Origin: Candidatus Zixiibacteriota bacterium
GTDB taxonomy: Bacteria; Zixibacteria; MSB-5A5; GN15; FEB-12
DNA length: 63,781 nt
Reading direction: 5' to 3'
NCBI GenBank assembly: GCA_041908405.1
Contig: JAYRFH010000250.1
Span: 1 to 63,781, forward strand
Below the pieces are notes generated by a model. The model searched no databases, had not been told where the DNA came from, and worked only from the letters and a program-made list of their open reading frames with translations. Position numbers and translations under genes: made by a program. Of this stretch, positions 5,397-34,043 are shown piece after piece (position 1 is the first letter of the stretch; each line of letters starts with the position of its first letter).

Positions 5397-6638
5397 ATGG
5401 ATGTTGAGATAGTCACAGTTGGCGACGAGGTGATCACCGGGCACACGGTTGACACCAACTCCGCGCATATCTCGCGAGTGCTGACCGAGGTCGGCCTGAC
5501 GATCAAATACAAATCGTCGGTCGGCGATTCTATCGAATTAATGGAAGAGGTTTTCCGGATGGCCCTCAAGCGGGCGCATCTGGTGATCGTCACCGGCGGA
5601 TTGGGACCGACCGATGATGACCTGACCAAGCGCGCGATCGTCAAGGTCTTCAAGCGCAACCTCATCTTTCAAGAAGATATCCTCGACGAGATCAAAGAAA
5701 GATTTCGGCGTCGCGGACTCGAGATGCCCGCGCTCAACCAGAATCAGGCGCTCCTGCCGCAAGGCGCGACCTTCTTCCCCAACAAACTCGGATCCGCGGT
5801 CGGTATTTGCATCGCCGAGGAAGGCCGTGTGTTTATCGCCTTGCCCGGAGTACCGAGCGAGATGAAGCAGATCCTCAACGATGAGGTTGTCCCCTACCTG
5901 CGGAATATCCACACGACCCAGGCTATCTCGGTCATCAAACTGCGAACGACTGGCATATTTGAGTCAGCTCTCGCCGAGTTGATCATGCCCGGCCTGAAAC
6001 TCGAGTCCGGTGTCAAACTCGCCTATTTGCCGTCGTATAGCGGTGTTGATCTGCGCATCGTCGCGACTGCCGCGAGTGGCGCTGAGGCCGATGGCAAAGC
6101 GGTCAAGCTCGCCAATCATCTTGAATCGATTTGCGGCAAATACATTTATGGACGGGATACCGACTCACTCGAAATGGTGGTTGGCCGTCTCCTGCGCGAC
6201 AGAAACGCGACGCTCGCTGTCGCCGAATCATGCACCGGCGGTCAACTCGGTATGGTGATGACCTCGACTGCGGGATCATCGGATTATTTCCTCGGCGGTG
6301 TCCTTGCCTACGCAAACGAGATAAAAGAGAGTCAGCTCGGCGTCAGCAATGAGATACTGGACACGCATGGCGCGGTCTCTGAAGAGTGCGCGATCGCGAT
6401 GGCCCAGGGAGTACGCGCGAAATTCGGCAGCAGCTATGCCGTCTCTGTCACCGGCATCGCCGGACCGGGCGGCGCGACCGAATCCAAACCGGTCGGTTTG
6501 GTCTATGTCGGGATAGCGTCCGAGAAGCGGTCATTCGCGAAGAAGTATTCATTCGGCGTCGATCGCGATATCAACCGCACGCGCGCGACCTACACGGCGA
6601 TAGAACTTCTGCGCCGCGAACTATTAGGGATCGACTGA
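5397..6638 (+). CDS. cinA: competence/damage-inducible protein CinA (MoCF-binding domain plus PncC-type nicotinamide-nucleotide amidase)
   Basis: MDVEIVTVGDEVITGHTVDTNS is a typical CinA N-terminus. The C-terminal half reads TLAVAESCTGGQLG...VSVTGIAGPGG. ATG 5397 has GGAG 6 nt upstream. The alternative start is 5385. Confidence 0.9.
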   Translation: MDVEIVTVGDEVITGHTVDTNSAHISRVLTEVGLTIKYKSSVGDSIELMEEVFRMALKRAHLVIVTGGLGPTDDDLTKRAIVKVFKRNLIFQEDILDEIKERFRRRGLEMPALNQNQALLPQGATFFPNKLGSAVGICIAEEGRVFIALPGVPSEMKQILNDEVVPYLRNIHTTQAISVIKLRTTGIFESALAELIMPGLKLESGVKLAYLPSYSGVDLRIVATAASGAEADGKAVKLANHLESICGKYIYGRDTDSLEMVVGRLLRDRNATLAVAESCTGGQLGMVMTSTAGSSDYFLGGVLAYANEIKESQLGVSNEILDTHGAVSEECAIAMAQGVRAKFGSSYAVSVTGIAGPGGATESKPVGLVYVGIASEKRSFAKKYSFGVDRDINRTRATYTAIELLRRELLGID

Positions 6639-7189
6639 TGCGGATCTTCATCGCTTTTCCACTTGAAGACTCCGTCACTCGCCGACTGGGTGAGATCGTG
6701 ACTGATTTCGAGCGGAATGGCGGCCCGGTGAAATGGGTCGAACCCAAGAATATGCACCTGACCGCACGGTTTCTCGGCGAAACACCTGATAATCAACTCG
6801 ACCAGCTTATCAAAGTAGTTACCACAGCAGGTGGAAAAGGAACCGTTATCCGCACAGTCATTCAACAGATCGGCGGATTCCCGAACCTTCACCGCCCGCG
6901 TGTCATCTGGGCCGGGATGGACAACGAAGTGAACAAGCTGGTGCCGATCGCCGTGGAGATTGAACGTTACGTTCAGCAACTCGGATTCCCTGCGGAGAAC
7001 AAGCCATTCAAGCCGCACCTGACACTGGGGCGCGTTCGCGAGGGAGCCAAGATAGGCAACTCATTGGATTTTCTGATGCGCTACCAGTTGACGCCGATAC
7101 CGGTTCAGTTTGATCGACTGGCATTGATCAAATCGACTCTCACTCCTCGCGGACCGATCTACGACACACTTCACGAAGTGAAGCTTTGA
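6638..7189 (+). CDS. thpR: RNA 2',3'-cyclic phosphodiesterase (2H phosphoesterase, LigT/ThpR)
   Basis: Starts MRIFIAFPL. Two HxT motifs are present (HLTARFLG and HLTLGR). The ATG overlaps the cinA stop (TGATG). The track ORF 6386..7189 carries a spurious N-terminal extension inside cinA. Confidence 0.85.
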   Translation: MRIFIAFPLEDSVTRRLGEIVTDFERNGGPVKWVEPKNMHLTARFLGETPDNQLDQLIKVVTTAGGKGTVIRTVIQQIGGFPNLHRPRVIWAGMDNEVNKLVPIAVEIERYVQQLGFPAENKPFKPHLTLGRVREGAKIGNSLDFLMRYQLTPIPVQFDRLALIKSTLTPRGPIYDTLHEVKL

Positions 7190-7272
7190 CCTCCCCTGCC
7201 CTTTAATAGATACCAAAATAAAAAGCGACCTCGTGGGAGGCCGCTTTCTGAGGAATTTGCTGCGAGAGGAAC

Positions 7273-7962
7273 TTACTTCTTCGAGTAGCGACGCGCTATC
7301 GCGCCACCGGCGATACCGAGACCGAAGAGCAGCATGCTGGCCGGTTCGGGAGTCGGGGTCGGATGTCCCGCGAAATCGTGCGAGAATGGCGCGAATTTGT
7401 CGACCACCAGGTTGTTCCGGTTGTCGAACTTCAAATTGTACGCGTCGAAATGGACGCTAGCCGCGCCGATGATCTCGATCGCGAAGTGGCGATTCTGGCC
7501 GAGCGTGTTACCGCCGGGCAGATAGCCATTGCTTGGATCGTATCCATCGTTCACATCGCCGATACCGCCCATCGCGGCAAAACTGCCGGCGCTGAATTCG
7601 GTGTACCAGGCGGGGAACACGCCATGCTTGGGGAGGTCGCCGCGGGTCGTCTCAAGAGTCGCCATCGGCGGGATACCCCAGACAAAGTTGGCGTAGTCGA
7701 ATCCATTGACGCGGATCGAGATGCCGCTCAAGTCGGCATTCTCATCCAGACCGCTGAGCGCCATACTGACCAGAACATCGTTGATGCCACCTTTACCAAT
7801 GACATACAGGTCAAAGGTCGATGACGTAGTGATCCAGGTCTCCGGATCATCGCCGCCGGTGTGGTAAGTCGAGCCGGGGGCATAAAGCTGAAGATCCGGG
7901 ACGGCAAATGCGCTGGCGGAAAGCAGAAAAACCGCAATCGCGCCTAACAGCAATTTCCTCAT
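7273..7962 (-). CDS. PEP-CTERM sorting-domain secreted protein
   Basis: Signal peptide MRKLLLGAIAVFLLSASAFA. The C-terminus PTPTPEPASMLLFGLGIAGGAIARRYSKK has the PEP motif, a TM helix and a basic tail. The start is taken at Met15 of track ORF 7273..8004. Confidence 0.85.
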   Translation of the reverse strand: MRKLLLGAIAVFLLSASAFAVPDLQLYAPGSTYHTGGDDPETWITTSSTFDLYVIGKGGINDVLVSMALSGLDENADLSGISIRVNGFDYANFVWGIPPMATLETTRGDLPKHGVFPAWYTEFSAGSFAAMGGIGDVNDGYDPSNGYLPGGNTLGQNRHFAIEIIGAASVHFDAYNLKFDNRNNLVVDKFAPFSHDFAGHPTPTPEPASMLLFGLGIAGGAIARRYSKK

Positions 7963-8041
7963 ACAAGTAACCTCGTACTGTTTGTGCCGGTCGCCGCGAC
8001 GCAACGAGCAGGTGATAGAATTATGCTACTCTGCCCATAAA

Positions 8042-8057
8042 AGCAAGCCATGTGCCC
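8042..8057 (-). promoter_or_regulatory. sigma-54 (-24/-12) promoter-like element upstream of the PEP-CTERM gene
   Basis: The minus strand reads GGGCAC-ATGGC-TTGCT with the correct GG-N10-GC spacing. It lies about 80 nt upstream of ATG 7962. The core is identical to the element at 59571..59586. Confidence 0.45.
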
Positions 8058-8107
8058 TACAGTGCCTATCTCCATGCAAATCTTGCGTATTCAGCGTACC
8101 AATTTGT

Positions 8108-8137
8108 ATGACAACACGTTACGCCGTCGAATATAAT
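8108..8137 (+). promoter_or_regulatory. sigma-70-type promoter candidate, distal, upstream of recA
   Basis: ATGACA (8108..8113), an 18-nt spacer, then a perfect TATAAT (8132..8137). This lies about 260 nt upstream of recA. Confidence 0.3.
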
Positions 8138-8306
8138 TGCTCCAGAATCGCCGGATTTCGCCCTCCGAAGCCGCTAAGCGCAAATCGCTTCACAAGTTCG
8201 ATGACTCCCTGCAGCCCGAATCTGGCTTTTGGAGGCTGTCTTTTGGCTCCGTGGATGGTTCAGAGGCCGCCCTTGCAGCCAAAAAAAGTTGAGAGAACTC
8301 ACTTTT

Positions 8307-8327
8307 CACTGACAGCCCCTGTCAGTG
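8307..8327. promoter_or_regulatory. perfect 9-bp inverted repeat (operator or leader hairpin) upstream of recA
   Basis: CACTGACAG-CCC-CTGTCAGTG, 68 nt upstream of the recA ATG. Confidence 0.3.
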
Positions 8328-8394
8328 GGTTTCTCTATTTATGAGGCGTAGCGAATGTGATATACTTAGGCGAACCTCTATCGGAGATTAGCCT

Positions 8395-9483
8395 ATGGAA
8401 AGCAAGAAAATCGACATAAAGAAAGGGAAGCCGGAGATGGCAGCTACCGCGACAGCCACGCCCGACCGCAAGAAGGCGCTTGATGCCGCCCTCACGCAGA
8501 TCGAACGGGCGTTTGGCAAAGGTTCAATCATGCGACTGGGGGATGACCATGTCGCCGAGGTCGAAGTTATCCCGACCGGATCGCTCGGTCTGGATTACGC
8601 CCTCGGTGTCTGGGGGATCCCGCGCGGCCGCATTGTCGAAGTATTTGGTCCGGAATCATCCGGTAAAACGACCCTCGCTTTGCATGTCATCGCCGAGGCA
8701 CAACGCGCCGGCGGCGTGGCGGCCTTTATTGATGCTGAGCATGCGTTTGACGCCAACTACGCCAAAGGGCTGGGGATCGATCTTGGCAACCTGCTCGTCT
8801 CTCAGCCGGACAATGGCGAGCAGGCGCTTGAGATCGTTGAAACACTCGTTCGGTCCAGCGCGGTCGATCTGATCGTGGTCGACTCGGTCGCGGCGCTCAC
8901 GCCGAAATCCGAGATCGAGGGTGACATGGGTGACTCACATATGGGTCTGCAGGCTCGCCTGATGTCGCAGGCGCTCCGCAAACTCGCCGCGATCACCAAC
9001 AAATCTCACACCGCAATCATCTTCATCAACCAGATCCGTATGAAGATCGGCGTGATGTTCGGCAATCCCGAAACGACGACCGGTGGTAACGCCCTCAAGT
9101 TTTACGCGACGATCCGTCTGGATATCCGCCGTATCGCTTCGATCAAAGAGGGGGATGAAGTGATCGGCTCCCGCACGCGTGTGCGCGTGGTGAAAAACAA
9201 AGTCGCGCCGCCATTCCGCGAGGCGGAGTTTGATATCATCTACGGTAAGGGGATATCCGGCTCAGGCGAACTCTTGGATATGGCGGTGAACTACAATATC
9301 ATCGAGAAATCCGGTTCCTGGTTCAGCTACAAGTCTGAGCGACTGGGGCAGGGACGGGAGAACGCGAAGAAGTTCCTCGAAGAGAATTTCCCGATCCTCG
9401 ATGAAGTGATGCACGCGGTGAAAGACAAACTGGGCGCGGCCGGAGCAGCGGTGCGCTCGGGGAATGGTGCTGAAGAAGACTAG
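8395..9483 (+). CDS. recA: recombinase RecA
   Basis: Walker [10 protein letters not shown]. Also [32 protein letters not shown] and [30 protein letters not shown]. Confidence 0.97.
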
Positions 9484-24185: not shown

Positions 24186-24381
24186 GGTCCTCTTGGGTTG
24201 ATTTCCTTTTGCCCGATTAAACGGCCTTAAAAAAATCGAGTTCCGACAAAGCGACAAGTCGACTTTCCGATTCGACCGATTTTGTTATCTAATTATAGTG
24301 CAATCGCTTAACCGTACTTTTTTATCTTGTTAGACGGCGCTGGGAACATTATTATCCGAGGGTAATTACTAATAGGTAACT
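24186..24381. promoter_or_regulatory. divergent promoter/operator region between TerC and the DtxR-family regulator
   Basis: The minus strand has a perfect TATAAT (24297..24292) but a poor -35. An AT-phased imperfect palindrome GGTAATTACTAATAGGTAAC (24361..24380) abuts the regulator start codon. Confidence 0.35.
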
Positions 24382-24897
24382 ATGCCGACCAAGTCACACC
24401 CTACCATATCCCTGACCGCCGCTCAGGAAGACTACCTGGAAGTGATCTTCCAGCTTTCGCAACAGGAGCCATATGGCCCGGTGCGAATTACAGATATCGC
24501 GCGCGAACTGCAGACCAAGCTGCCGACCGTCACACGGACTGTCCATAAACTTACTGAACTTGGTTTGCTTGAGCACCCGCACCGTCAGGGCGTGTCCTTG
24601 TCGGAGATGGGGCGAAAAGTGGCATCTGATATTCGTCACCGTCACACCGACCTGGTCGCTTTTTTTACCGGCGTGCTTGGTTTGGATCAACGCGACGCGG
24701 AGCTGGATGCCTGCAAGATAGAGCATGGCATTTCGCCGCGGACCGCCGAGCGACTGCATGATTTTCTTGAGTATTTCCAGACACTGTCAAAGACCGATCA
24801 GGAGAGACTGACCGGTTCTCAATCCATAGCATCTGTAACACGCGAGCGGCAGTTCAAAAATCTGCTGCAAAACCGAGTCCGGGGATGGAGAGGATAA
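24382..24897 (+). CDS. DtxR-family metal-dependent transcriptional regulator (short TroR/MntR-like form)
   Basis: 171 aa. AQEDYLEVIFQL and an HTH VRITDIARELQTKLPTVTRTVHKLTELGLLEH. Metal-site region RHRHTDLVAFF...AELDACKIEH has the DtxR-like H, E, C, E, H positions. Confidence 0.85.
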   Translation: MPTKSHPTISLTAAQEDYLEVIFQLSQQEPYGPVRITDIARELQTKLPTVTRTVHKLTELGLLEHPHRQGVSLSEMGRKVASDIRHRHTDLVAFFTGVLGLDQRDAELDACKIEHGISPRTAERLHDFLEYFQTLSKTDQERLTGSQSIASVTRERQFKNLLQNRVRGWRG

Positions 24898-25838
24898 TGC
24901 GTCCGATGAGACAAGCTGCCTTGCTTATGATGATACTTGGAGTCCTTGCCGCCGCGCTGTTTGCCGGATGCGGCGGACAAAAGGAGAGCGCGACCGCGGA
25001 TGGGAAAGTGATCGTCGTGACGACGATCGGGATGATCGCTGACGCGGTAAAGAATATTACCGGTGACTCGGTCACCTTATATGGCCTCATGGGGCCGGGG
25101 GTTGACCCCCACTTGTATAAAGCGACCAAGGGAGATATCGACCGCCTCAACAGCGCAAATATCATTCTCTATAACGGGCTCAACCTTGAAGCGAAAATGG
25201 CGGAGATATTCAAGCAGATGTCCGCCAGCAAAGTCGCGGTGCCGGTCGGTGAGGCTGTTCCGGATTCGTTGCGCCGCCATCCGGCGCAATTTCAGGGGCA
25301 TCCCGACCCGCATATCTGGTTTGATGTCTCTCTATGGGAAATGGCCGTCCGCGAGATCATCGCGACGCTGACGAAGTACGATACCGCGCACACCGATATG
25401 TATTGTCTCAACGGCGCCGCGTATCTCGACTCACTACATGCCCTTGATATCTGGGTACGGGAGCAGATGGCAACTATCCCGCAAGACCAGCGGGTACTGG
25501 TGACCGCGCACGACGCGTTCGGCTATTTTGGCCGCGCGTATGGGATCGAAGTGGTCGGACTGCAAGGCATATCAACCGTCACCGAAGCCGGACTTTATGA
25601 TGTCACGCATATGATCGATATGCTCGTCGAACGGAAGATCAAGGCGGTCTTTGTGGAATCTTCGGTCCCGAGGAAATCTATTGAAGCAGTGGTGGCTGGA
25701 TGCCAGTCGCGTGGACATGAGATCGTCATTGGCGGTGAACTTTTCTCCGACGCCATGGGGCAGGCCGGCGCGCCGGAAGGAACGTACCTTGGCATGGTCC
25801 GGCACAACGTCAACGCGATCGTGAAAGCACTGAAGTAA
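24897..25838 (+). CDS. metal ABC transporter substrate-binding lipoprotein (cluster A-I, TroA/ZnuA/MntC family)
   Basis: Lipobox LFAGC. Ligand motifs are [23 protein letters not shown] and FSDAMG, giving a His/His/His/Asp set as in TroA. No His-rich loop. The ATG overlaps the regulator stop (TAATG). The alternative start is 24885. Confidence 0.9.
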
Positions 25839-25839
25839 C

Positions 25840-26601
25840 ATGGAATCACAGATACCGATCGAAGTCCATGACCTGACGGTCGCCTATCGGCGCAAGCCGG
25901 TGCTCTGGAATGTCGATTTCACTCTGCCGGAGGGAAATCTGATAGGTCTGGTCGGCCCGAATGGCGCGGGCAAATCCACGCTGATAAAAGCGATTATGGG
26001 ACTGTTGCCGCTCCTGTCCGGATACGTGAAGATATACGGAGAGCCGCTGGAGAATATGCGGCACAGGGTCGGCTATGTACCCCAGCGCGAGTCGGTCGAT
26101 TGGGATTTCCCGATAAACGCCCTCGACGTCGTGACAATGGGTCGCTACGGCCGACTCGGCCTGTTCAGTCGTCCGTCCAAGGAAGACAAGCAAATCGCCA
26201 TGGCCTGTCTCGAGAAAGTCGGGATGCAGGATTTCGCGCATCGTCAGATAAGCCAGCTTTCCGGTGGTCAGCAGCAGCGGGTTTTCCTGGCGCGCGCGTT
26301 GACGCAGGATGCCTCGATATACCTCATGGATGAACCATTCGCGGGTGTCGATGCCGCGACCGAAAAAGCGATCATCGACCTCCTCAAAGATCTCAAAGCG
26401 CACAAGAAGACCGTCATGGTAGTGCACCATGACCTCCACACGGTGACCGAATATTTCGATTGGGTTATGCTCCTGAATATGCGCTTGGTCAAGTTTGGAC
26501 CGACCGATCAGATATTCACCGACGAGAACCTTCGCCTCACCTACGGCGGCAAGTTGCTGCTATTGAGTGAAGCGGCCGAAAAAGTGGCGCGGCATCGATA
26601 G
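25840..26601 (+). CDS. metal ABC transporter ATP-binding protein
   Basis: Walker [10 protein letters not shown], signature LSGGQQQR, Walker B IYLMDEP. Confidence 0.93.
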
Positions 26602-26607
26602 GCTGAT

Positions 26608-27924
26608 ATGGATTGGTTCGACCTGACAATTCGTTTTTTCTCGCTCGCCGACGCCAATGTCCGGTGGGTGGTTTTTGGCTCGATCTTTTTAGGAGGAGCG
26701 GCCGGCGGCCTGGGATGTTTCGCCTATCTGCAGAAACGCTCGCTCCTGGGGGACGCGCTGGCGCATGCCGCCCTGCCCGGTGTCGGGTTGGCATTCCTGA
26801 TAATGGGGCGAAAGGATTTCCTCGCTTTGCTGATCGGCGCGTCCATCACCGGGTGGCTTGGCGCCATGGCAATCAATTATATCGTGCGAGAGTCAAAGAT
26901 CAAGCTCGATGCCGCGCTGGGGATCGTGCTGACGGTCTTCTTCGGGCTCGGCATCGTAATCCTGACACACATTCAGAAGTCTGGCTCCGGGGCGCAGTCC
27001 GGTCTCGACAAGTTCCTCTTCGGACAGGCCGCCGCGATGGGGCGAGATGATGTCATGATCCTCGGTGTGGTCGCGCTGATCATGCTAGCGGTTGTCTCAA
27101 TCGGGTTTGGCAGATTCAAACTGATCTCGTTTGATGCCGCATTCGGTCGGTCCCTCGGGATGCGAGTCGGGTTACTGCAGTTTGCGATGACCACGATGAT
27201 GGTTTTTGCAGTGACGATCGGTCTTCAGGCGGTCGGCGTTGTGCTGATGGCCGCCATGCTCATCACTCCGGCCGCGGCGGCACGACAATGGACCGACAAA
27301 CTGCACCTGATGGTGATACTGGCGTCGATATTCGGAATCCTCTCCGGTCTGTTCGGCGCGTATATCTCGTTCCTGGCGCCGCGTTTTCCGACGGGGCCGT
27401 GGATGGTGATCGTCGTAACCGCCCTATTCGCGTTTTCTATGCTCTTTGCGCCAAACCGCGGGATAATCAGTTTTATCCGGCAGCATTACGCGAACCGTCG
27501 CAAAATGACGCGTGAGCATGTGCTGAAAGTTCTCTTCAAAGCCGGCCAGGAGAGCAAGCAGTGGCGCACGTATTATCCGTTCGAGCAGATCAAACGGATG
27601 TGGTCCTTCACCCAGCATGAACTTCAGGCCGCGCTCAAAACACTTCAGCGCCAAGGGATGCTCGAGAGATCGGGAACGATGTATCGACTGTCCGAGTCCG
27701 GCGTGACCGAGGGGGCACGCGTGACCCGCCTCCATAGACTGTGGGAGGTCTACCTCTCACGCTACCTCGAATTGCCGGAAGATCATGTGCACCGCGACGC
27801 CGAGGATATGGAGCACATTATCACGCCGGAGATGGAAGAGCGTCTCGAAGAGATGCTGGATCATCCGGCATACGACCCGCACCGTCAGGAGATCCCCTAT
27901 ATCGGGCGGGAGGAGAAACGATGA
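26608..27924 (+). CDS. metal ABC transporter permease (ABC-3 family) fused to a C-terminal DtxR/MntR-like domain
   Basis: 438 aa. The first ~290 aa are a TroC/MntC-type multi-TM permease (LGDALAHAALPGV). The last ~135 aa read ...LQRQGMLERSGTMYRLSESGVTEGARVTRLHRLWEVYLSRYLELPEDHVHRDAEDMEHIITPEMEERLEEMLDHPAYDPHRQEIP. This aligns with the DtxR wHTH end plus its metal-binding/dimerisation domain. Confidence 0.9.
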   Translation: MDWFDLTIRFFSLADANVRWVVFGSIFLGGAAGGLGCFAYLQKRSLLGDALAHAALPGVGLAFLIMGRKDFLALLIGASITGWLGAMAINYIVRESKIKLDAALGIVLTVFFGLGIVILTHIQKSGSGAQSGLDKFLFGQAAAMGRDDVMILGVVALIMLAVVSIGFGRFKLISFDAAFGRSLGMRVGLLQFAMTTMMVFAVTIGLQAVGVVLMAAMLITPAAAARQWTDKLHLMVILASIFGILSGLFGAYISFLAPRFPTGPWMVIVVTALFAFSMLFAPNRGIISFIRQHYANRRKMTREHVLKVLFKAGQESKQWRTYYPFEQIKRMWSFTQHELQAALKTLQRQGMLERSGTMYRLSESGVTEGARVTRLHRLWEVYLSRYLELPEDHVHRDAEDMEHIITPEMEERLEEMLDHPAYDPHRQEIPYIGREEKR

Positions 27925-28796
27925 CCCCGGATCTTTGGGTAATTGTGACCGGCATCCTGGCGGCGGCGTCATTGGCGCTGATCGGCTCGTTCCTGGTGCT
28001 TCGACAGAACGGTATGTTGGGAGATGCCATCTCACACGCGGTTCTCCCCGGTCTGGTGATAGCGTTTCTTATCACCAGTAGTCGGAACGTCGTGCCGATG
28101 GTGATAGGCGCCGGTCTATTCGGGCTGCTGACCGCATACCTGACCGAATTGTTGAGCCAGACGCGCAGAGTCTATTCTGACGCCGCGATGGGGATAGTTT
28201 TCACATTACTCTTCGCGATCGGCGTGATCATGGTCGCAATGTTCACCGAGCAGGTGGATCTCGACCAGGAATGCGTACTGTACGGCGAGATAGCGTACAC
28301 GCCCTGGAATCGACTTGTCGTTGGAGGAGCGGATCTTGGCCCGCGCGCGGTCTGGATACTCGGGGCGGTTCTGTTGGCAAATATAGGGTTCATCGCGCTC
28401 TTCTTCAAACAGCTCAAAATAAGTTCGTTTGATCCGCAAATGGCCGTGGCGGTAGGAATCAAAGAGAAGCTCTGGCATTATCTATTGATGACCATGGTCT
28501 CTCTCACTGTGGTCTCCGCATTTGAGTCGGTCGGCGCTATACTGGTCGTGGCGATGCTGATAATCCCCGGCGCGACAGCCTATCTTTTGACCTCCAAATT
28601 ACATGTGATGTTGTCCCTGTCAGTTGTGATTGGTATTCTTTGTGCTTTAGGTGGATTTTATGGCGCGTCCTGGCTTGACGCGTCCATCGCCGGGATGATG
28701 GCTGTGGTCGGGGGCGTGTTGTTCGGCGCGATTCTGGTTTGGAAACAGGTGTCCCGTAAGGTGCACCAGATGAAGTATTCCACAAACCGCGCATAG
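27921..28796 (+). CDS. metal ABC transporter permease (second subunit, TroD/MntD-like)
   Basis: Starts MTPDLWVIVTGILAAASLALIGSFLVLRQNGMLGDAISHAVLPG. ATGA overlap with the upstream stop. The track ORF 27741..28796 extension lies inside the previous gene and is rejected. Confidence 0.9.
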   Translation: MTPDLWVIVTGILAAASLALIGSFLVLRQNGMLGDAISHAVLPGLVIAFLITSSRNVVPMVIGAGLFGLLTAYLTELLSQTRRVYSDAAMGIVFTLLFAIGVIMVAMFTEQVDLDQECVLYGEIAYTPWNRLVVGGADLGPRAVWILGAVLLANIGFIALFFKQLKISSFDPQMAVAVGIKEKLWHYLLMTMVSLTVVSAFESVGAILVVAMLIIPGATAYLLTSKLHVMLSLSVVIGILCALGGFYGASWLDASIAGMMAVVGGVLFGAILVWKQVSRKVHQMKYSTNRA

Positions 28797-28835
28797 GGAA
28801 TCGAAGAGGCGGCGTAACCGAGAATCGGGGGATCA

Positions 28836-29927
28836 ATGGCAGAACGAGCTGCCATACTCATTTCACGACAGTCATTGCGACCATCGGGGAAAACACCCTG
28901 GGTGGCCAATGCGGTGAAAACAGTACACTGGGTCAAAGAGCACGGGCTGTCGCTTAACAGTTCGATCGGCATGCAGACCTGGGAATTGGTAACGGCGCTG
29001 GCCTCACGCGACCGAATCCCTCTCACGGTATATATCCCAAACAGCTCAAAGCAGGTGAATTCACCTGACGAAATTGTGCGTCAATTCGCGCTGACGGCTG
29101 ATCATGTCGAATTCATTCCAGTGCACTCAGCGGAGAAAGATTCCAAGGAGGGAGAACTGTCTGCGCGGGATACACAGGTTGTGAGCGAGGCTGATATCCT
29201 CTTACCTATCTCGGTCAGGCCCGGTGGGCATATGCATATGCTCATCGAGGAAGCGCGGGCACAAGGGAAGCAGATCATTGAAGAGTTCACTGTTCCCTGG
29301 AAGCAGCCGCGAGAAGAGATCATCTCGCACTTTGACCGATGCTCAATCAATCCTGAGATAGACGCGTACTCATCAGAATTGCTCACACACTGGACCCGGA
29401 CACCGCATGGCCAATGGCCGGGCGAACGGGCGATAGATTATTATCTGGAGATGTCGCAAAGCGAGCGGTTTCCTCGAAGTGCCTTTGAAACGCTGCGGCG
29501 AATTGCGCGCACTAGTCGCCTACTGGCTTCGCCGCGACATATGCCATCGAATATCCCCACAGTCGCATTCAGCGCCCTCGCGCCGAGGGATTTGATACCA
29601 CTGATGCGCTGGCGCGCGCGATACGCGGAGATGAGTTTCGAGCCGTACGGGATCGGCATCCGTAAGGCGAGAGCGGCCGAGATCGGTATTAGGCCGGTTG
29701 TCTACTACGAGCGTACGAAGCCAGCGGAGTTTGAATTTTCCCCATGGCTTTGTCAGTCGATAGGATCCAAGACTGATTGGCGGCAGGAAGCAGAGTATCG
29801 GCACTACAGTGATCTGGCTATGGACATTTCGCCGCGTGACATCGTCCTCTTCTGCAGAACTGCTGAAGAAGCAGCTCAGTTGAGGCAGGAGTTTGGCATT
29901 CCCGCGATAAACCTCTTCGTAGAATAA
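28836..29927 (+). CDS. hypothetical protein: N-terminal DprA/SLOG-like Rossmann module plus C-terminal Abi-like module
   Basis: 363-aa ORF with a GGGGGA RBS, 39 nt after the permease gene. N-terminal AILISRQSLRPSGKTPWVANAVKTVHWVKEHGLSLNSSIGMQTWELVTALA...PLTVYIP...ARDTQVVSEADILLPISVRPGGHMHMLIEEARAQGKQI resembles the DprA fold pattern. C-terminal motifs are LTHWTR, VAFSAL, EPYGIGIRKARAAEIGIRPVVY and EAEYRHYSDL. Confidence 0.7.
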   Translation: MAERAAILISRQSLRPSGKTPWVANAVKTVHWVKEHGLSLNSSIGMQTWELVTALASRDRIPLTVYIPNSSKQVNSPDEIVRQFALTADHVEFIPVHSAEKDSKEGELSARDTQVVSEADILLPISVRPGGHMHMLIEEARAQGKQIIEEFTVPWKQPREEIISHFDRCSINPEIDAYSSELLTHWTRTPHGQWPGERAIDYYLEMSQSERFPRSAFETLRRIARTSRLLASPRHMPSNIPTVAFSALAPRDLIPLMRWRARYAEMSFEPYGIGIRKARAAEIGIRPVVYYERTKPAEFEFSPWLCQSIGSKTDWRQEAEYRHYSDLAMDISPRDIVLFCRTAEEAAQLRQEFGIPAINLFVE

Positions 29928-29932
29928 AGAAA

Positions 29933-29954
29933 GGGCCGGTCGCAGGACCGGCCC
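29933..29954. terminator. bidirectional hairpin terminator between convergent genes
   Basis: GGGCCGGTC-GCAG-GACCGGCCC, flanked by AAAGAAA on one side and TCTGTATTAT on the other. Confidence 0.65.
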
Positions 29955-29977
29955 TCTGTATTATCTCAAGATTACTG

Positions 29978-32900
29978 TCACTTCAGTAGAAGCATCTTCC
30001 GAGAGGCGCTGAACTTACCCGCGGTGAGTCGATAGAGATAGACGCCGGAGCCTTCGCCCCGACCATCCCACCGTATCTCCGTTCGTCCGGCGCGTGCCGA
30101 TCCATTCCGCTGAAATACTTCGCGACCGGTCACATCATACACGGTTAATTGATATTCCGACGCGCGCGGCAGTTCAAACGCAATAGTCGTGTTTGGATTG
30201 AACGGGTTCGGGTAGTTCTGCATCAACGCGAAATTCCGCGGCAAGGTTGGATCATCGCCGGGAACATCGGTGGAGATGTCGGTTGAGAACATCCGTATCG
30301 GGGAACTGGAAGACAAACCGACATTATCTTCCGCTACCACTTGCCAGTAATACTCCGATAGATCCAGGAGTGAATCGGTGAGCGTGACAGTTGTATCGGT
30401 GATATCGGCGATCTCTGCCGCGGGAGACAGGCCAGGGTCGCTGCCATAGCGGAGTGTGTAGTGGACTACGTCGTTGGGATTCGGGTCGGTCGATCTGTGC
30501 CAGACAAAGGTCGGCAAGAGAGATGGGACAACGCCATCGGCCGCTGGAGAGATCTGAGTCGCCACTGAAGGCGCCTGCCCCGCAACCAAGGCGTAGGCGA
30601 ACGGCGCTCGCGTGGCGGCATCCTTAATGAGCGCGAGATCCGCTCCTCCGATGATCGCTATCACGACTGTATCCAATTGCCCTGCCGCCAAAGTCAGCGG
30701 TCCGGCCGCGATCGTCTGCACCAGATCATTGATGGAATCTCTTAACACAACCGGGTTGCTGACACCGGCATTCAGCATCTGGTATTTTTCGACATCGGTG
30801 TAGCCATTCGCGCCGGTCCCCCACCAGGCAAGCCAGACAGTGAACGCCTTTGACGTTGCTGCAGTTGCCAACGGCCCTTCAAGAAGTTTCGCGCCACGGA
30901 AGCGCGAAAGATTGGGGTCAAAGTATGACCCGGAATTGTACGCCGACCAGAGGAATTGCTCTGCGGATTCCCAGCCACCGGCATTACGCGAGTAAGCCGG
31001 CGAGATATCCCAGTCGAGGCTGAGACCGAATTTCAGATTGTTGAGCGTGCTTCCTGAATTATTCTTGAGGATGAACTGCAGCACCGCGATATCACCATAG
31101 GGCGGGGCAAAGCTGTATGCGTTCTGCGTGACTTCGAGACCGATAGGCAGACTCGCGCCAGAGTCATCAAACCTGCAACGGCTGACTTCGTCGATACCGG
31201 TTCCGACCACCTGGAAGGTCATGTCGCCATTCGGCGCGACCCGGAAATCAAGCTCCGGCTCGGGTAATTGAAAACGCAAGGCCGCCGATATTTTGGTTGG
31301 TCCGGTCGACGCCATAACGCCGCCTTCGTAAAGATCACTCCCGAGACCATCCAAATTGAAACCGGCGCCTCCAGCGGGGAAGATCGACGCGGCACCCAAT
31401 CCGATCGCGCCGAAGTTCGAGACGGAGTAGGTCAGTCGGCTGGTCTGGTGCGTGGCAAGCGCTTTGGAATTGCGTGGCTCAACCACAAACGCAAGACTTG
31501 TGTTGACGGTATAGGGGCCATTGGTGATCTGGAAGGGGACCGTGATCACCTGCCCTTGCGCGACCGAGTTGGAGATAGTCACGCTCAGATTGTCGGACGA
31601 TGTGTCTACCACATTCGGCCCTACTGTTCCAAAGCCAACAGTGCCATCGGTGATGGTCAACAGCGGATGAGTTCCGGTGATAGTGCCGGTCAATCCATTG
31701 ACATTGCTTCCCAGATTCTGTACGACCACCGGACCGGTCACAATATCACCTGGTTCTATCGTAATATGAATGAAATCATATAACCGTACCTGCGGTGTGC
31801 CCGGAGCAGACGGGAGCGCGTTGAGCGCGGCGAGGCAATCGATCTCTCCCCAGCCGACATCGTTATTCGGGGTCGACCAGCTATAGGTCTGCGTGGTATT
31901 CAGGATCGCCTGCTTTATCTGCGTAACGGTGGCGGCGGGATTCTTCTGGCGAAGCAGGGCCACAAGTCCGGAGACATGCGGCGCGGCCATCGAAGTACCG
32001 GTCATTACGCCATAGGTCGAACCAGGGAGCGTTGAGCGCACCTGATATCCCGGCGCCATGACATTGGGTTTGATAGCGCCGTTGCAGGTGGATGGACCGC
32101 GCGAGGACTGGACATCGACCGTGGGTACGATCGTTGTGAAGCGAAGCATTCCGACCGCAAAGCAGTCGAGCGAGTCATTCGCGCGATTCGCCGGATTGTA
32201 AATCGTGGAGGCCGTCGAACCTGTGTTACCGGCGGCGAAGATATTGACGATTCCCAGAGCTTCGGTCGCATCAATGAAATCATAGAACATATTTTCGCAG
32301 CCAACCCATCGATTCTCATACCCCCAGCTATGATTAATAACATCGGGACGGTCGGAGATCGTGTTCGGGTCGCTGTCGGGGTCAACCGCCCACTCGAAGG
32401 CATCGGCCACGGAGGCACCAGGAATATCGATCACCGCGGCGGATATCCATTTGGCATCGGGGGCGACACCGTAGGCTCGATCATTGACCGAATCCAGACC
32501 AACCATGATCCCCATGGTGTGCGTGCCGTGCATCGGGGCGTAGGAATTGTTGAACGTGTGCGGTGCAAGCTGCTTGGCGGTCGGGTCAAACCAGGAAGCA
32601 AGCGAATCCTGGCGACTTCCACCACGGCCGCGCCAGCTTCGCTGTAATGCCGGATGGTCGCCTTGTACGCCGGTATCAAATGAACAGATAACCCGCCCGG
32701 CTCCGGTCCAGCCGGCATTCCATGCCTGCGGGGCCTTGATATGCTTGAGATTATCCATCACTGAGTCGGCGGCAATATCGGCTTCCGACAAAGCGGCTTC
32801 GTAGATCGGTCGAATGCCCTGAATCTCGGGCTCGGGATAGATCACGTCGATATCTGACCGGGCGGCCAGCGCGTTCAGTTCCGAGGCGGAGATATCAACC

Positions 32901-33256
32901 TCGACCATATTGACCAGCCAGTGGGGCTTAATACGCGAAACCTGATTCCGCCGCTCAAGAGTCTCAAGGTAGCCGATCAGTTCGCGTTGCGCGCCTTGGT
33001 GTGCCAATTTGAGATTGGTGATGGCATCGCGATGTTGCTCCGCCGCACTTGCGGAAGGTGGCATGGTCTTGAGCGCGCTGGCTGTTGGCGATTCCGGGAG
33101 CCTGATCCAGACACGGAGAGTCTGGTCCGCATCGAGCGCGGCTATCTTCTGAGCAAGATGGGGAGAAAGCTGACCCGCCATGAGGTTGGCGCAGAAGAGG
33201 ATCAGGAACAGGGCGAGAAGCAGGGTCAGGCGAGTGGTCATTGGTTTCTCCATCAT
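29978..33256 (-). CDS. S8-family subtilisin-like serine peptidase with a T9SS-type C-terminal sorting domain
   Basis: 1092 aa. Signal peptide and an I9-like propeptide. Catalytic triad motifs FDTGVQGDHPAL, HGTHTMGIMVG and GTSMAAPHVSGLVALL. C-terminus MQNYPNPFNPNTTIAFELPRASEYQLTVYDVTGREV...SGVYLYRLTAGKFSASRKMLLLK. Confidence 0.93.
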   Translation of the reverse strand: MMEKPMTTRLTLLLALFLILFCANLMAGQLSPHLAQKIAALDADQTLRVWIRLPESPTASALKTMPPSASAAEQHRDAITNLKLAHQGAQRELIGYLETLERRNQVSRIKPHWLVNMVEVDISASELNALAARSDIDVIYPEPEIQGIRPIYEAALSEADIAADSVMDNLKHIKAPQAWNAGWTGAGRVICSFDTGVQGDHPALQRSWRGRGGSRQDSLASWFDPTAKQLAPHTFNNSYAPMHGTHTMGIMVGLDSVNDRAYGVAPDAKWISAAVIDIPGASVADAFEWAVDPDSDPNTISDRPDVINHSWGYENRWVGCENMFYDFIDATEALGIVNIFAAGNTGSTASTIYNPANRANDSLDCFAVGMLRFTTIVPTVDVQSSRGPSTCNGAIKPNVMAPGYQVRSTLPGSTYGVMTGTSMAAPHVSGLVALLRQKNPAATVTQIKQAILNTTQTYSWSTPNNDVGWGEIDCLAALNALPSAPGTPQVRLYDFIHITIEPGDIVTGPVVVQNLGSNVNGLTGTITGTHPLLTITDGTVGFGTVGPNVVDTSSDNLSVTISNSVAQGQVITVPFQITNGPYTVNTSLAFVVEPRNSKALATHQTSRLTYSVSNFGAIGLGAASIFPAGGAGFNLDGLGSDLYEGGVMASTGPTKISAALRFQLPEPELDFRVAPNGDMTFQVVGTGIDEVSRCRFDDSGASLPIGLEVTQNAYSFAPPYGDIAVLQFILKNNSGSTLNNLKFGLSLDWDISPAYSRNAGGWESAEQFLWSAYNSGSYFDPNLSRFRGAKLLEGPLATAATSKAFTVWLAWWGTGANGYTDVEKYQMLNAGVSNPVVLRDSINDLVQTIAAGPLTLAAGQLDTVVIAIIGGADLALIKDAATRAPFAYALVAGQAPSVATQISPAADGVVPSLLPTFVWHRSTDPNPNDVVHYTLRYGSDPGLSPAAEIADITDTTVTLTDSLLDLSEYYWQVVAEDNVGLSSSSPIRMFSTDISTDVPGDDPTLPRNFALMQNYPNPFNPNTTIAFELPRASEYQLTVYDVTGREVFQRNGSARAGRTEIRWDGRGEGSGVYLYRLTAGKFSASRKMLLLK

Positions 33257-33533: not shown

Positions 33534-34043
33534 ATGGATACTACCTCCCTCTCCCCCGAACTGATGCGCGCGATGCTGGATGATTTTGCCAAAAACTGGC
33601 TGGCCCACGATGGCCTCTGGTTTCAGGCGGTCGAAAAGCACTATGGGATGGAGAAAGCGATCGAACTGGATACCGAGGCCTGGGAGCAGTTCACGGTTAT
33701 CGAAGCGAAGCGGATAATGGCGCTGCACAAGATACCGGCTAACTCCGGCCTTGATGGCCTGAAGAAAGCTTTGGGATTCAGGCTCTACGCGTTTCTCAAT
33801 GAGCAGACGATTCGGAATGAGACCTCAAACTCGTTCGAATTCTATATGGATGATTGCCGGGTGCAGTCCGCGCGAAAGCGCAAATCACTGCCACTGTTTC
33901 CGTGTAAGTCGGTCGGGTTGGTGGAATACGCCGGATTCGCGAGAACTATCGACCCGCGGATCGTGACGGAGTGTATCGGTTGTCCGCCCGATGCCCACGC
34001 GGGGAATGAATATTTTTGCGGGTGGCGCTTTAGCATCAAATAA
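33534..34043 (+). CDS. hypothetical cytosolic protein, possibly DUF6125/ATC-hydrolase-like (family assignment uncertain)
   Basis: 169-aa ORF followed by a strong terminator. Contains NWLAHDGLWFQAVEKHYGMEKAIELD and a Cys-containing C-terminus (CKSVG...ECIGCPPDAH...FCGWRF). Confidence 0.65.
   Translation: MDTTSLSPELMRAMLDDFAKNWLAHDGLWFQAVEKHYGMEKAIELDTEAWEQFTVIEAKRIMALHKIPANSGLDGLKKALGFRLYAFLNEQTIRNETSNSFEFYMDDCRVQSARKRKSLPLFPCKSVGLVEYAGFARTIDPRIVTECIGCPPDAHAGNEYFCGWRFSIK

Follow-up and report, generated by a model that had tools for sequence, protein, structure and literature searches.

A vertically inherited two-domain protein of Zixibacteria with a DprA/SLOG-type fold and a candidate ADP-ribosyltransferase-like domain

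The gene and its boundaries

We analysed a 63,781-nt stretch of DNA from a Candidatus Zixiibacteriota bacterium (assembly GCA_041908405.1, contig JAYRFH010000250.1; the whole stretch is hereafter the window), and we describe one gene within it, the target, which lies at 28836..29927 on the forward strand. The open reading frame (ORF) list of the window gives a complete gene with an ATG start that encodes 363 residues and a stop codon. This list, full-length homologues, an AlphaFold2 model and substitution rates together mark it as the gene of a two-domain protein, in which a DprA/SLOG-like part precedes a putative AbiGi/DarT-like part that resembles ADP-ribosyltransferases (ARTs). The protein belongs to an undescribed family of two tightly packed domains that occurs in Zixibacteria-type metagenome-assembled genomes (MAGs) and in a few neighbouring lineages. 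An earlier reading of the letters alone (the sequence-only reading) had described the gene as an orphan and as an inserted, single-gene nucleotide-sensing defence module. The position and length that it gave for the ORF are correct, and every peptide motif that it quoted is found in the translation. Its statement that the protein matches no recognisable housekeeping family agrees with our single-sequence scans of the target against Pfam, NCBIfam and PDB sequences, none of which gave a significant match.

The target is a real, selected gene and not a chance ORF, because the ratio of nonsynonymous to synonymous substitution rates (dN/dS) against its two closest relatives is 0.157 and 0.181 and because hundreds of full-length homologues exist. 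The public annotation of the protein (P0001) is shorter, with 341 residues and a start at ~28902, 22 codons inside the 363-residue ORF. However, residues 4–22 are conserved across the family, with S10, Q12, P16 and W22 nearly invariant in the alignment, and the ATG context at 28836 is kept in the related loci L002 and L003. The 363-residue form is therefore probably the better gene model, and the annotated start of P0001 was probably mis-called. A Shine-Dalgarno-like GGGGGA can be read from the sequence at 28827..28832 on the forward strand, 3 nt upstream of the ATG, and the block around it, gggggatcaATGGC, is also kept in L002 and L003.

On its 5′ side the target follows the stop codon of troD (28796), the last gene of a metal-uptake cassette, after a gap of 39 nt, and a sequence scan of this gap detected no terminator-like or promoter-like site. 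On its 3′ side a GC-rich hairpin with a 12-bp stem and 8 G–C pairs (29930..29957) is terminator-like on both strands and is common to the target and to a convergent S8 peptidase gene that lies beyond it (29978..33256, reverse strand). Both the 39-nt distance from a metal-transport operon and the bidirectional terminator had been described correctly from the letters.

Domain architecture and conserved motifs

A full-length AlphaFold2 model built from a 52-sequence alignment has a mean predicted local distance difference test score (pLDDT) of 92.1 and a predicted template modelling score (pTM) of 0.88, and this high pTM suggests that the packing between the two domains is fixed. The domains are joined by a linker (residues ~148–170; 29277..29345) that has blocks of lower pLDDT (74–82), no regular secondary structure and a variable sequence. 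Two independent sets of family members, one of 52 and a more divergent one of 97 (down to 29% identity), were scanned against PADLOC and Pfam.

Residues ~1–147 (28836..29276, forward strand) are predicted to form a Rossmann domain of the DprA/SLOG type, as judged by the β-α-β structure of the model, by Foldseek and by conservation, and the conserved residues are S10, Q12, P16, W22, S43, G45, T48, W49, R111, D112, P124, S126, R128, G131 and M133. The best PDB match found by Foldseek is ShosA (8zva, E 4.7e-5). DprA chains 4ljr, 5mll, 3uqz and 3maj match at E 9e-5 to 3e-3 with target-normalised TM scores of 0.41–0.50, YpsA (2nx2) at E 2e-3, the SLOG domain of ThsA (7uxs) at E 4e-3 and LOG (5wq3) at E 1e-2; LOG 5zbl is also among the top matches. 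The DprA- and SLOG-family matches carry a Foldseek probability of ~1.00, and one family member gave a weak match to LDcluster4 in the Pfam scan (E 0.19). At the level of the predicted fold, the N-domain is thus a member of the DprA/SLOG superfamily. The sequence-only reading had proposed this domain from motifs and had looked to a structure prediction for its Rossmann fold, and the model bears it out.

By sequence the N-domain does not belong to the DprA family itself. The DprA profile PF02481 (DNA_processg_A) had no match at E ≤ 1 among the 52 and 97 members, and the target had no NCBIfam match either. The accessory domains of DprA, an N-terminal SAM domain and a C-terminal winged helix, are absent from the model, in which the Rossmann fold starts at residue 4 and the ART-like domain comes next. 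The LOG catalytic motif PGGxGTxxE is also absent; the corresponding stretch reads P124-[IV]-S-x-R128-x-G-G131-x-M133, with no conserved threonine or glutamate.

The C-terminal domain (residues ~171–363; 29346..29924, forward strand) is of mixed α/β structure in the model and appears, from weak AbiGi matches, the model and conservation, to be distantly related to AbiGi and the ART superfamily. AbiGi is the sole family matched by many members in both sets. The PADLOC AbiGi model matches 17 of the 52 and 15 of the 97 members (best E 1.9e-5), and Pfam AbiGi (PF10899) matches 9 and 11 of them, respectively, at E ≤ 1 (best E 5e-3). The match of the window protein to the PADLOC model is faint (E 0.044, residues 268–323) and is its sole PADLOC signal, and it has no match to Pfam AbiGi. 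Other families are singletons, including single weak matches to DUF2971, save for a few weak matches to PDC-S31 and Ser_hydrolase; the Pfam families of DarT (PF14487) and of the RNA 2′-phosphotransferase Tpt1 (PTS_2-RNA) matched none of the 52 and 97 members. Judged by its profile, the C-domain is not a member of PF10899 as now defined.

A separate model of the C-domain has a pLDDT of 91.7. Foldseek gave no significant PDB match for this model, and the top two of 350,542 PDB chains are both DarT, 7omu (E 0.18, TMq 0.40) and 8baq (E 0.42, TMq 0.45), the latter a complex with NAD+. No Tpt1 structure is among the matches. A fold search against viral structures returned unnamed proteins at E ~5e-3 and was uninformative. 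Profile searches of PDB sequences with the full-length and C-domain alignments returned only AriA, a lysine methyltransferase and NusG, all of which we reject as spurious.

The C-domain is basic (median isoelectric point (pI) ~9), and most residues that are invariant in the protein lie within it. The active site of ARTs is described by the signature [R/H]x[D/T] – [S/Y][T/x][S/x] – [Q/E]x[Q/E/D] (PMC12522546), and we find three candidate counterparts, all on the forward strand. Candidate motif I, H185-W-T187-R188 (29388..29399), lies on the first β-strand of the domain (residues 182–186) and is invariant in 52 of 52 sequences; H185 and T187 are also invariant in the 97 divergent representatives. 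Candidate motif II, T242-V-(S/A)244-F-S246 (29559..29573), lies on the strand of residues 242–246. In the 52 sequences V243 is invariant, position 244 is S in 39, A in 10 and C in 3, and position 246 is S in 47, T in 4 and A in 1. This strand leads into a helix (residues 250–256), and the invariant R260 and R262 are carried on the helix after the motif. Candidate motif III, E318-x-E320-Y-R322 (29787..29801), lies at the start of the β-strand of residues 320–324, and its E318, E320 and R322 are invariant in both sets. The three motifs sit on predicted strands β1, β2 and β5, and so follow the order of the ART signature, at the level of pattern only. The full set of residues invariant in the 97 divergent representatives is D112, H185, T187, R260, E269, Y290, W315, E318, E320 and R322, and no positions in the protein are better conserved than the putative catalytic ones.

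AbiGi has been placed in the R-S-E clade of the ART superfamily, near DarT, DUF2971 and Tox-ART-HYD1 (PMC12522546), and is itself without a significant PDB neighbour (PMC13064643). With moderate confidence we place the C-domain in the ART superfamily, as a divergent member whose nearest relatives are AbiGi in sequence and DarT in predicted structure. The earlier suggestion of an AbiGi-like C-terminal half gains support from matches that recur across the family, though all of them are below threshold.

Distribution, inheritance and the neighbouring metal-uptake cassette

The gene is no orphan. A word-indexed search recovered 326 clusters (at 90% clustering) of full-length relatives of ~365 residues with 41–82% identity, and the named ones are almost all from Zixibacteria MAGs. 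An exhaustive profile search with the C-domain, which covered 1.84 billion representatives, recovered 1,675 of them (at 50% clustering) at E ≤ 1e-3 and 394 at E ≤ 1e-30. The best 150 of these 1,675 all have the same two-domain layout or are fragments, with no other architecture or bridging family among them. A divergent subclade around P0251 has the same architecture and no annotation, and a seeming fusion of 659 residues (P0144) was rejected, its extra 295 residues being low-complexity read-through. Relatives are encoded in 107 genomes of a species-level genome set, with a single locus each in four complete Zixibacteria chromosomes and in one 3.8-Mb assembly. Some of the MAGs that carry relatives are labelled Ignavibacteriales, Fibrobacter, Chitinivibrionales or Desulfobacterales (labels unverified). 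All homologues are annotated as hypothetical proteins and none carries a Pfam domain.

A full-text literature search found no paper linking Zixibacteria to ADP-ribosyltransferases, and no fusion of a SLOG/DprA domain with an ADP-ribosyltransferase is described in the titles and abstracts of the papers that a joint search for all three returned. The component domains are of known kinds, a SLOG/DprA-like Rossmann domain and an AbiGi/DarT-like ART domain; their fixed fusion, and its vertically inherited chromosomal status in a candidate phylum, appear to be undescribed.

For synteny the neighbours of the target in the window were mapped across 80 loci, and every ORF near the target was grouped into clusters. 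In 53 of the 80 loci the convergent gene for an S8 peptidase with a Por secretion tail lies downstream of the target, and in 33 a DUF6125 gene lies beyond it, although the syntenic relatives of the target are just 35–47% identical to the window protein. Many of the remaining loci lie on truncated contigs. In the window the peptidase is a subtilase of 1,092 residues with a Por/type IX secretion system (T9SS) C-terminal sorting domain, and it forms with the DUF6125 gene (33534–34043, forward strand) a stable pair beside the target. The DUF6125 protein is itself strikingly conserved for a protein of unknown function, with 62–82% identity in most related genomes and 97–98% in the two closest.

The composition of the target is native. 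Its GC content is 0.545 (window mean 0.557 ± 0.019) and its GC content at third codon positions (GC3) is 0.598 (window 0.661 ± 0.053); its codon-adaptation score of 0.622 is low and equal to that of troD. Its synonymous divergence (dS) from L002 is 0.63, within the 0.27–0.70 of its neighbours. Its dN/dS values are the highest of 12 genes of the region (0.014–0.136 for the others), with 0.19 for the N-domain and 0.13 for the C-domain, so that the target is under purifying selection roughly three times more relaxed than that on its flanks. Complete copies are intact in 77 of 78 cases. The orthologue in L003 (8001–8926) has a 163-nt internal deletion and a frame shift that remove residues ~49–97 of the N-domain, in a region where the genes flanking the target are 89–98% identical to those of the window; either this copy is a pseudogene or the assembly is wrong here. 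Because purifying selection is relaxed and one copy is disrupted while 77 are intact, the gene is probably useful but dispensable.

A tblastn search found no relatives in 72,556 plasmid or 50,697 phage records, and the window holds no tRNA or Rfam RNA family as a possible mark of an integration site. Distant members lie among housekeeping genes (TsaD, YbbR, M20 peptidase, pyruvate kinase and ClpB), and one of them adjoins a transposase. No recognisable defence genes (restriction-modification, CRISPR, Abi or other) were present in the ~85 contexts. On composition, dS and synteny we reject horizontal acquisition; the target is a stable, vertically inherited chromosomal resident of Zixibacteria-type bacteria, neither an orphan nor an inserted accessory gene.

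The cassette upstream of the target (24382..28796) is encoded on the same strand and is recognised by Pfam Fe_dep_repress, ZnuA and ABC-3. By Pfam and the ORF list it comprises mntR (24382–24897), troA (24885–25838), troB (25840–26601), troC (26608–27924) and troD (~27921–28796). At the C-terminal end of the TroC permease (ABC-3) is an Fe_dep_repr_C domain (residues 363–430, E 2e-23), a predicted metal-sensing domain of the DtxR/MntR metal-binding and dimerisation type fused to the transporter. Just 5′ of mntR are two tandem boxes, TTATCCGAGGGTAA (24352–24365) and TTACTAATAGGTAA (24366–24379), on the forward strand; they have the consensus ATTACC-N4-GGTAAT and are presumed from sequence to be MntR-type operators. 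The same palindrome is found just 5′ of mntR in essentially all cassette loci, often as tandem boxes 14 nt apart (seen in L002, L003, L021, L050, L052, L064, L070, L075 and L076). The lineage probably uses this palindrome as its MntR/DtxR-type box, and the two boxes of the window are the probable control point of the mntR–troABCD–target unit. Because the 39-nt gap holds no signals, transcription of the tro operon probably continues into the target, as the last gene of the operon in this genome.

In about 24 of the 80 loci the target is directly downstream, on the same strand and with gaps of 7–89 nt, of an MntR-type repressor and/or an importer. The importer in this slot is TroABCD in 8 loci (including the window), a ZIP transporter in 10 (L010, L024, L025, L032, L039, L047, L049, L070, L075 and L076) and NRAMP with Usp or another small ORF in 5 (L006, L008, L016, L028 and L034), and in L050 the target follows mntR alone. 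In most other syntenic loci (at least 15) the target is divergent from a gene for a NosD-like β-helix protein. The simplest reading is of a replaceable MntR–importer cassette beside a stable target, in which the cassette and not the target is the variable element, and at this slot uptake cassettes under MntR control have clearly been exchanged in situ for non-orthologous ones. In loci that lack the cassette, no ATTACC-N4-GGTAAT box directly precedes the target; the box is found only 5′ of mntR or importers. After this operator test we rejected a functional link to manganese uptake, and the place of the target in the operon is accidental and no argument for a part in metal homeostasis. The sequence-only reading had named conserved co-occurrence with tro/mnt operons as a point that would count against defence; the adjacency does recur, but as operon position only, with no operator of the target's own.

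Proposed function and comparison with known systems

The reading that we favour, and regard as about an even call, makes the protein an NAD+-dependent ADP-ribosyltransferase that may act on nucleic acid and whose DprA-like domain would target or regulate it, in a lineage-conserved and vertically inherited family. The C-domain would use NAD+ to pass ADP-ribose to a substrate, and the N-domain would select this substrate or gate the reaction. Other SLOG members bind nucleotides, ADP-ribose derivatives or cyclic ADP-ribose isomers. The leading candidate substrate would be a single-stranded nucleic acid or a nucleotide-linked molecule; a substrate of the single-stranded DNA (ssDNA) type is proposed because DprA and ShosA bind ssDNA (PMC11961720) and DarT ADP-ribosylates ssDNA bases.

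Several points weigh against this proposal. The assignment of the C-domain to the ARTs is weak: no family match attains a curated threshold (the gathering score of PF10899 included), the link to AbiGi depends on many weak matches that span only residues ~268–323, and the structural matches to DarT are individually not significant. The window copy and 10 of the 52 members have A-F-S as motif II in place of S-F-S. To our knowledge, AbiGi itself has never been shown to have enzymatic activity, and it is labelled an 'antitoxin'. With a median pI of 7.8 the N-domain is near-neutral; it is also shorter than DprA and without the SAM and winged-helix domains, and binding of ssDNA by it would be by analogy only. 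No macrodomain, ARH or NUDIX partner is conserved nearby, which is unexpected for a DarT-like modifier of DNA. A related proposal takes the protein for a 'domesticated' ART of the DarT/AbiGi type, fixed as a housekeeping gene throughout a bacterial lineage, whose DprA-like module would handle ssDNA and which would ADP-ribosylate single-stranded DNA or RNA in normal metabolism (replication, repair or competence control) with no adjacent eraser of the DarG type; we think this unlikely.

Both domain families are best known from defence or toxin-antitoxin (TA) systems (ShosA, ThsA-SLOG, AbiGi and DarT), and the target has a rate of evolution about three times that of its flanks. It could on these grounds be a single-gene anti-phage or conflict module, in which a SLOG-like sensor of a nucleotide signal or of phage nucleic acid activates an ART-like effector, and abortive infection results from loss of NAD+ or from ADP-ribosylation of host or phage targets. 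The top rank of its dN/dS in the region, the disrupted copy in one close relative, the transposase beside one distant member and the weak matches of a few divergent members to the PADLOC candidate PDC-S31 (best E 2e-4) can be read in the same way. However, PADLOC gave no convincing match for the window protein, the gene is single-copy and syntenic across distant relatives, its composition and dS are those of its surroundings, and plasmid and phage records hold none of its relatives. Its neighbours are housekeeping or metal-transport genes and never defence genes, and its architecture is invariant among the relatives listed, unlike that of typical modular defence proteins. The population-genomic behaviour of the target is the opposite of that usual for defence genes. 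These data contradict the framing as a horizontally inserted defence module, and a defence role as such, which is not the best-supported reading, we consider rather unlikely. The two domains might instead form a fused TA-like stress module, with an ART-like toxin restrained in cis by the DprA-like domain and freed under stress, for example when metal is limiting. The N-domain has its best structural match in an antitoxin, ShosA, which neutralises ShosT in trans; AbiGi and DarT belong to TA pairs; no separate antitoxin gene is conserved nearby in the 80 loci; and the model suggests a fixed packing of the domains. This support is purely analogical, and ShosA works through DNA binding and repair and not by binding the toxin (PMC11961720). 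The mobility and copy-number variation usual for TA loci are lacking, and the MntR operator is not linked to the target itself. We therefore regard such a module as very unlikely.

A role in nucleic-acid end processing or RNA repair, as a Tpt1-like NAD+-dependent phosphotransferase or an ADP-ribosylase of RNA or DNA ends joined to a nucleotide-binding SLOG domain, seems to us decidedly unlikely. Its appeal comes from a few loci. In L083 (4953–9218) a family member is the last gene, tightly spaced on the same strand, of an apparent operon of Archease, RtcB and a methyltransferase, and in L053 and L057 (~6539–9065) one is last in an apparent operon with CYTH and an EEP phosphatase/nuclease. These neighbours are a possible hint of a role with nucleic acids or nucleotide phosphates, with sparse support, since they occur in just 3 of ~85 contexts. 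DarT-related ART families have been placed near the RNA 2′-phosphotransferase (PMC12522546), but neither Pfam nor Foldseek linked the target family to Tpt1. Endonuclease V is often a near neighbour, though its gene runs on the other strand and belongs to the general synteny block. The remaining account, that the target is an accessory to Mn/Zn/Fe homeostasis co-regulated with MntR-controlled importers, would explain its position directly 3′ of TroABCD, ZIP or NRAMP (with Usp) in about 23 of the 80 loci and of mntR in L050, and the terminator-free gap in the window. Against it, most loci carry the target without an importer, the operator does not accompany the target on its own, and the sharing of one slot by three non-homologous importers points to turnover of the cassette beside a fixed neighbour. 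Neither domain resembles a metal-binding or transport-related family, and of all the accounts considered here we find this one the least probable.

Among ARTs that act on nucleic acids, the nearest ones studied, DarT and the scabin-like toxins, belong as toxins to mobile defence or TA loci, and for AbiGi-type domains, known since 1996, no activity has been demonstrated. If the family were enzymatically active as an ART, it would represent a non-conflict, housekeeping use of the AbiGi/DarT branch of the superfamily. As a single-gene, non-mobile and probably not strongly toxic family, it would then also be a tractable target for assigning a biochemical activity to AbiGi-like domains. It also illustrates that defence-like domains without annotation do not imply a defence island.

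Among known systems, the best fold matches of the N-domain are DprA/Smf and ShosA, the antitoxin of ShosTA (4ljr, 3uqz and 8zva). The motifs SS.G..TWEL and RD..V..AD.L.P.S.R.GG.M of the target resemble SG.A.GID and RN..I......vvE....SG...T of DprA. The N-domain differs from DprA in its size (~147 residues, with 5–6 strands against 9) and in being near-neutral and not strongly basic. DprA acts with RecA, whereas the N-domain of the target is fused to an enzyme-like domain. ThsA of Thoeris and other SLOG–effector fusions likewise have a SLOG-type Rossmann domain and an NAD+-utilising domain in one polypeptide. However, the putative effector of the target is ART-like and not Sir2 or transmembrane (TM), the order of the domains is reversed, and the target has no ThsB/TIR partner, lies outside defence islands and is vertically inherited.

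DarT, the ssDNA thymidine/guanosine ADP-ribosyltransferase of DarTG (7omu and 8baq), provides the two best structural matches of the C-domain. Like DarT, the C-domain is predicted to be a small ART-fold domain in which motif I is of the histidine type and β5 bears a putative catalytic glutamate. DarT acts on ssDNA, the class of substrate bound by DprA and ShosA, the closest relatives of the N-domain. The structural similarity is weak and unaccompanied by a PF14487 match, no DarG-like macrodomain is fused or conserved next to the target in the 80 loci and the distant contexts, and the target is not on mobile or defence loci. AbiGi (PF10899; PADLOC PDLC02331), the first component of the lactococcal AbiG abortive-infection system, is matched by ~31 of the 148 members in PADLOC and ~20 of 148 in Pfam. 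The alignment spans the FEPYGIGI...ExE region of the C-domain, and neither AbiGi nor the C-domain has a significant PDB match. AbiGi is a stand-alone protein of ~250 residues that is paired with AbiGii and carried on plasmids and other mobile elements, and no AbiGii-like or other conserved partner lies within ±6 kb of the target in the 80 loci. In contrast to AbiGi, the target has an additional N-terminal DprA/SLOG domain and is chromosomal, syntenic and vertically inherited.

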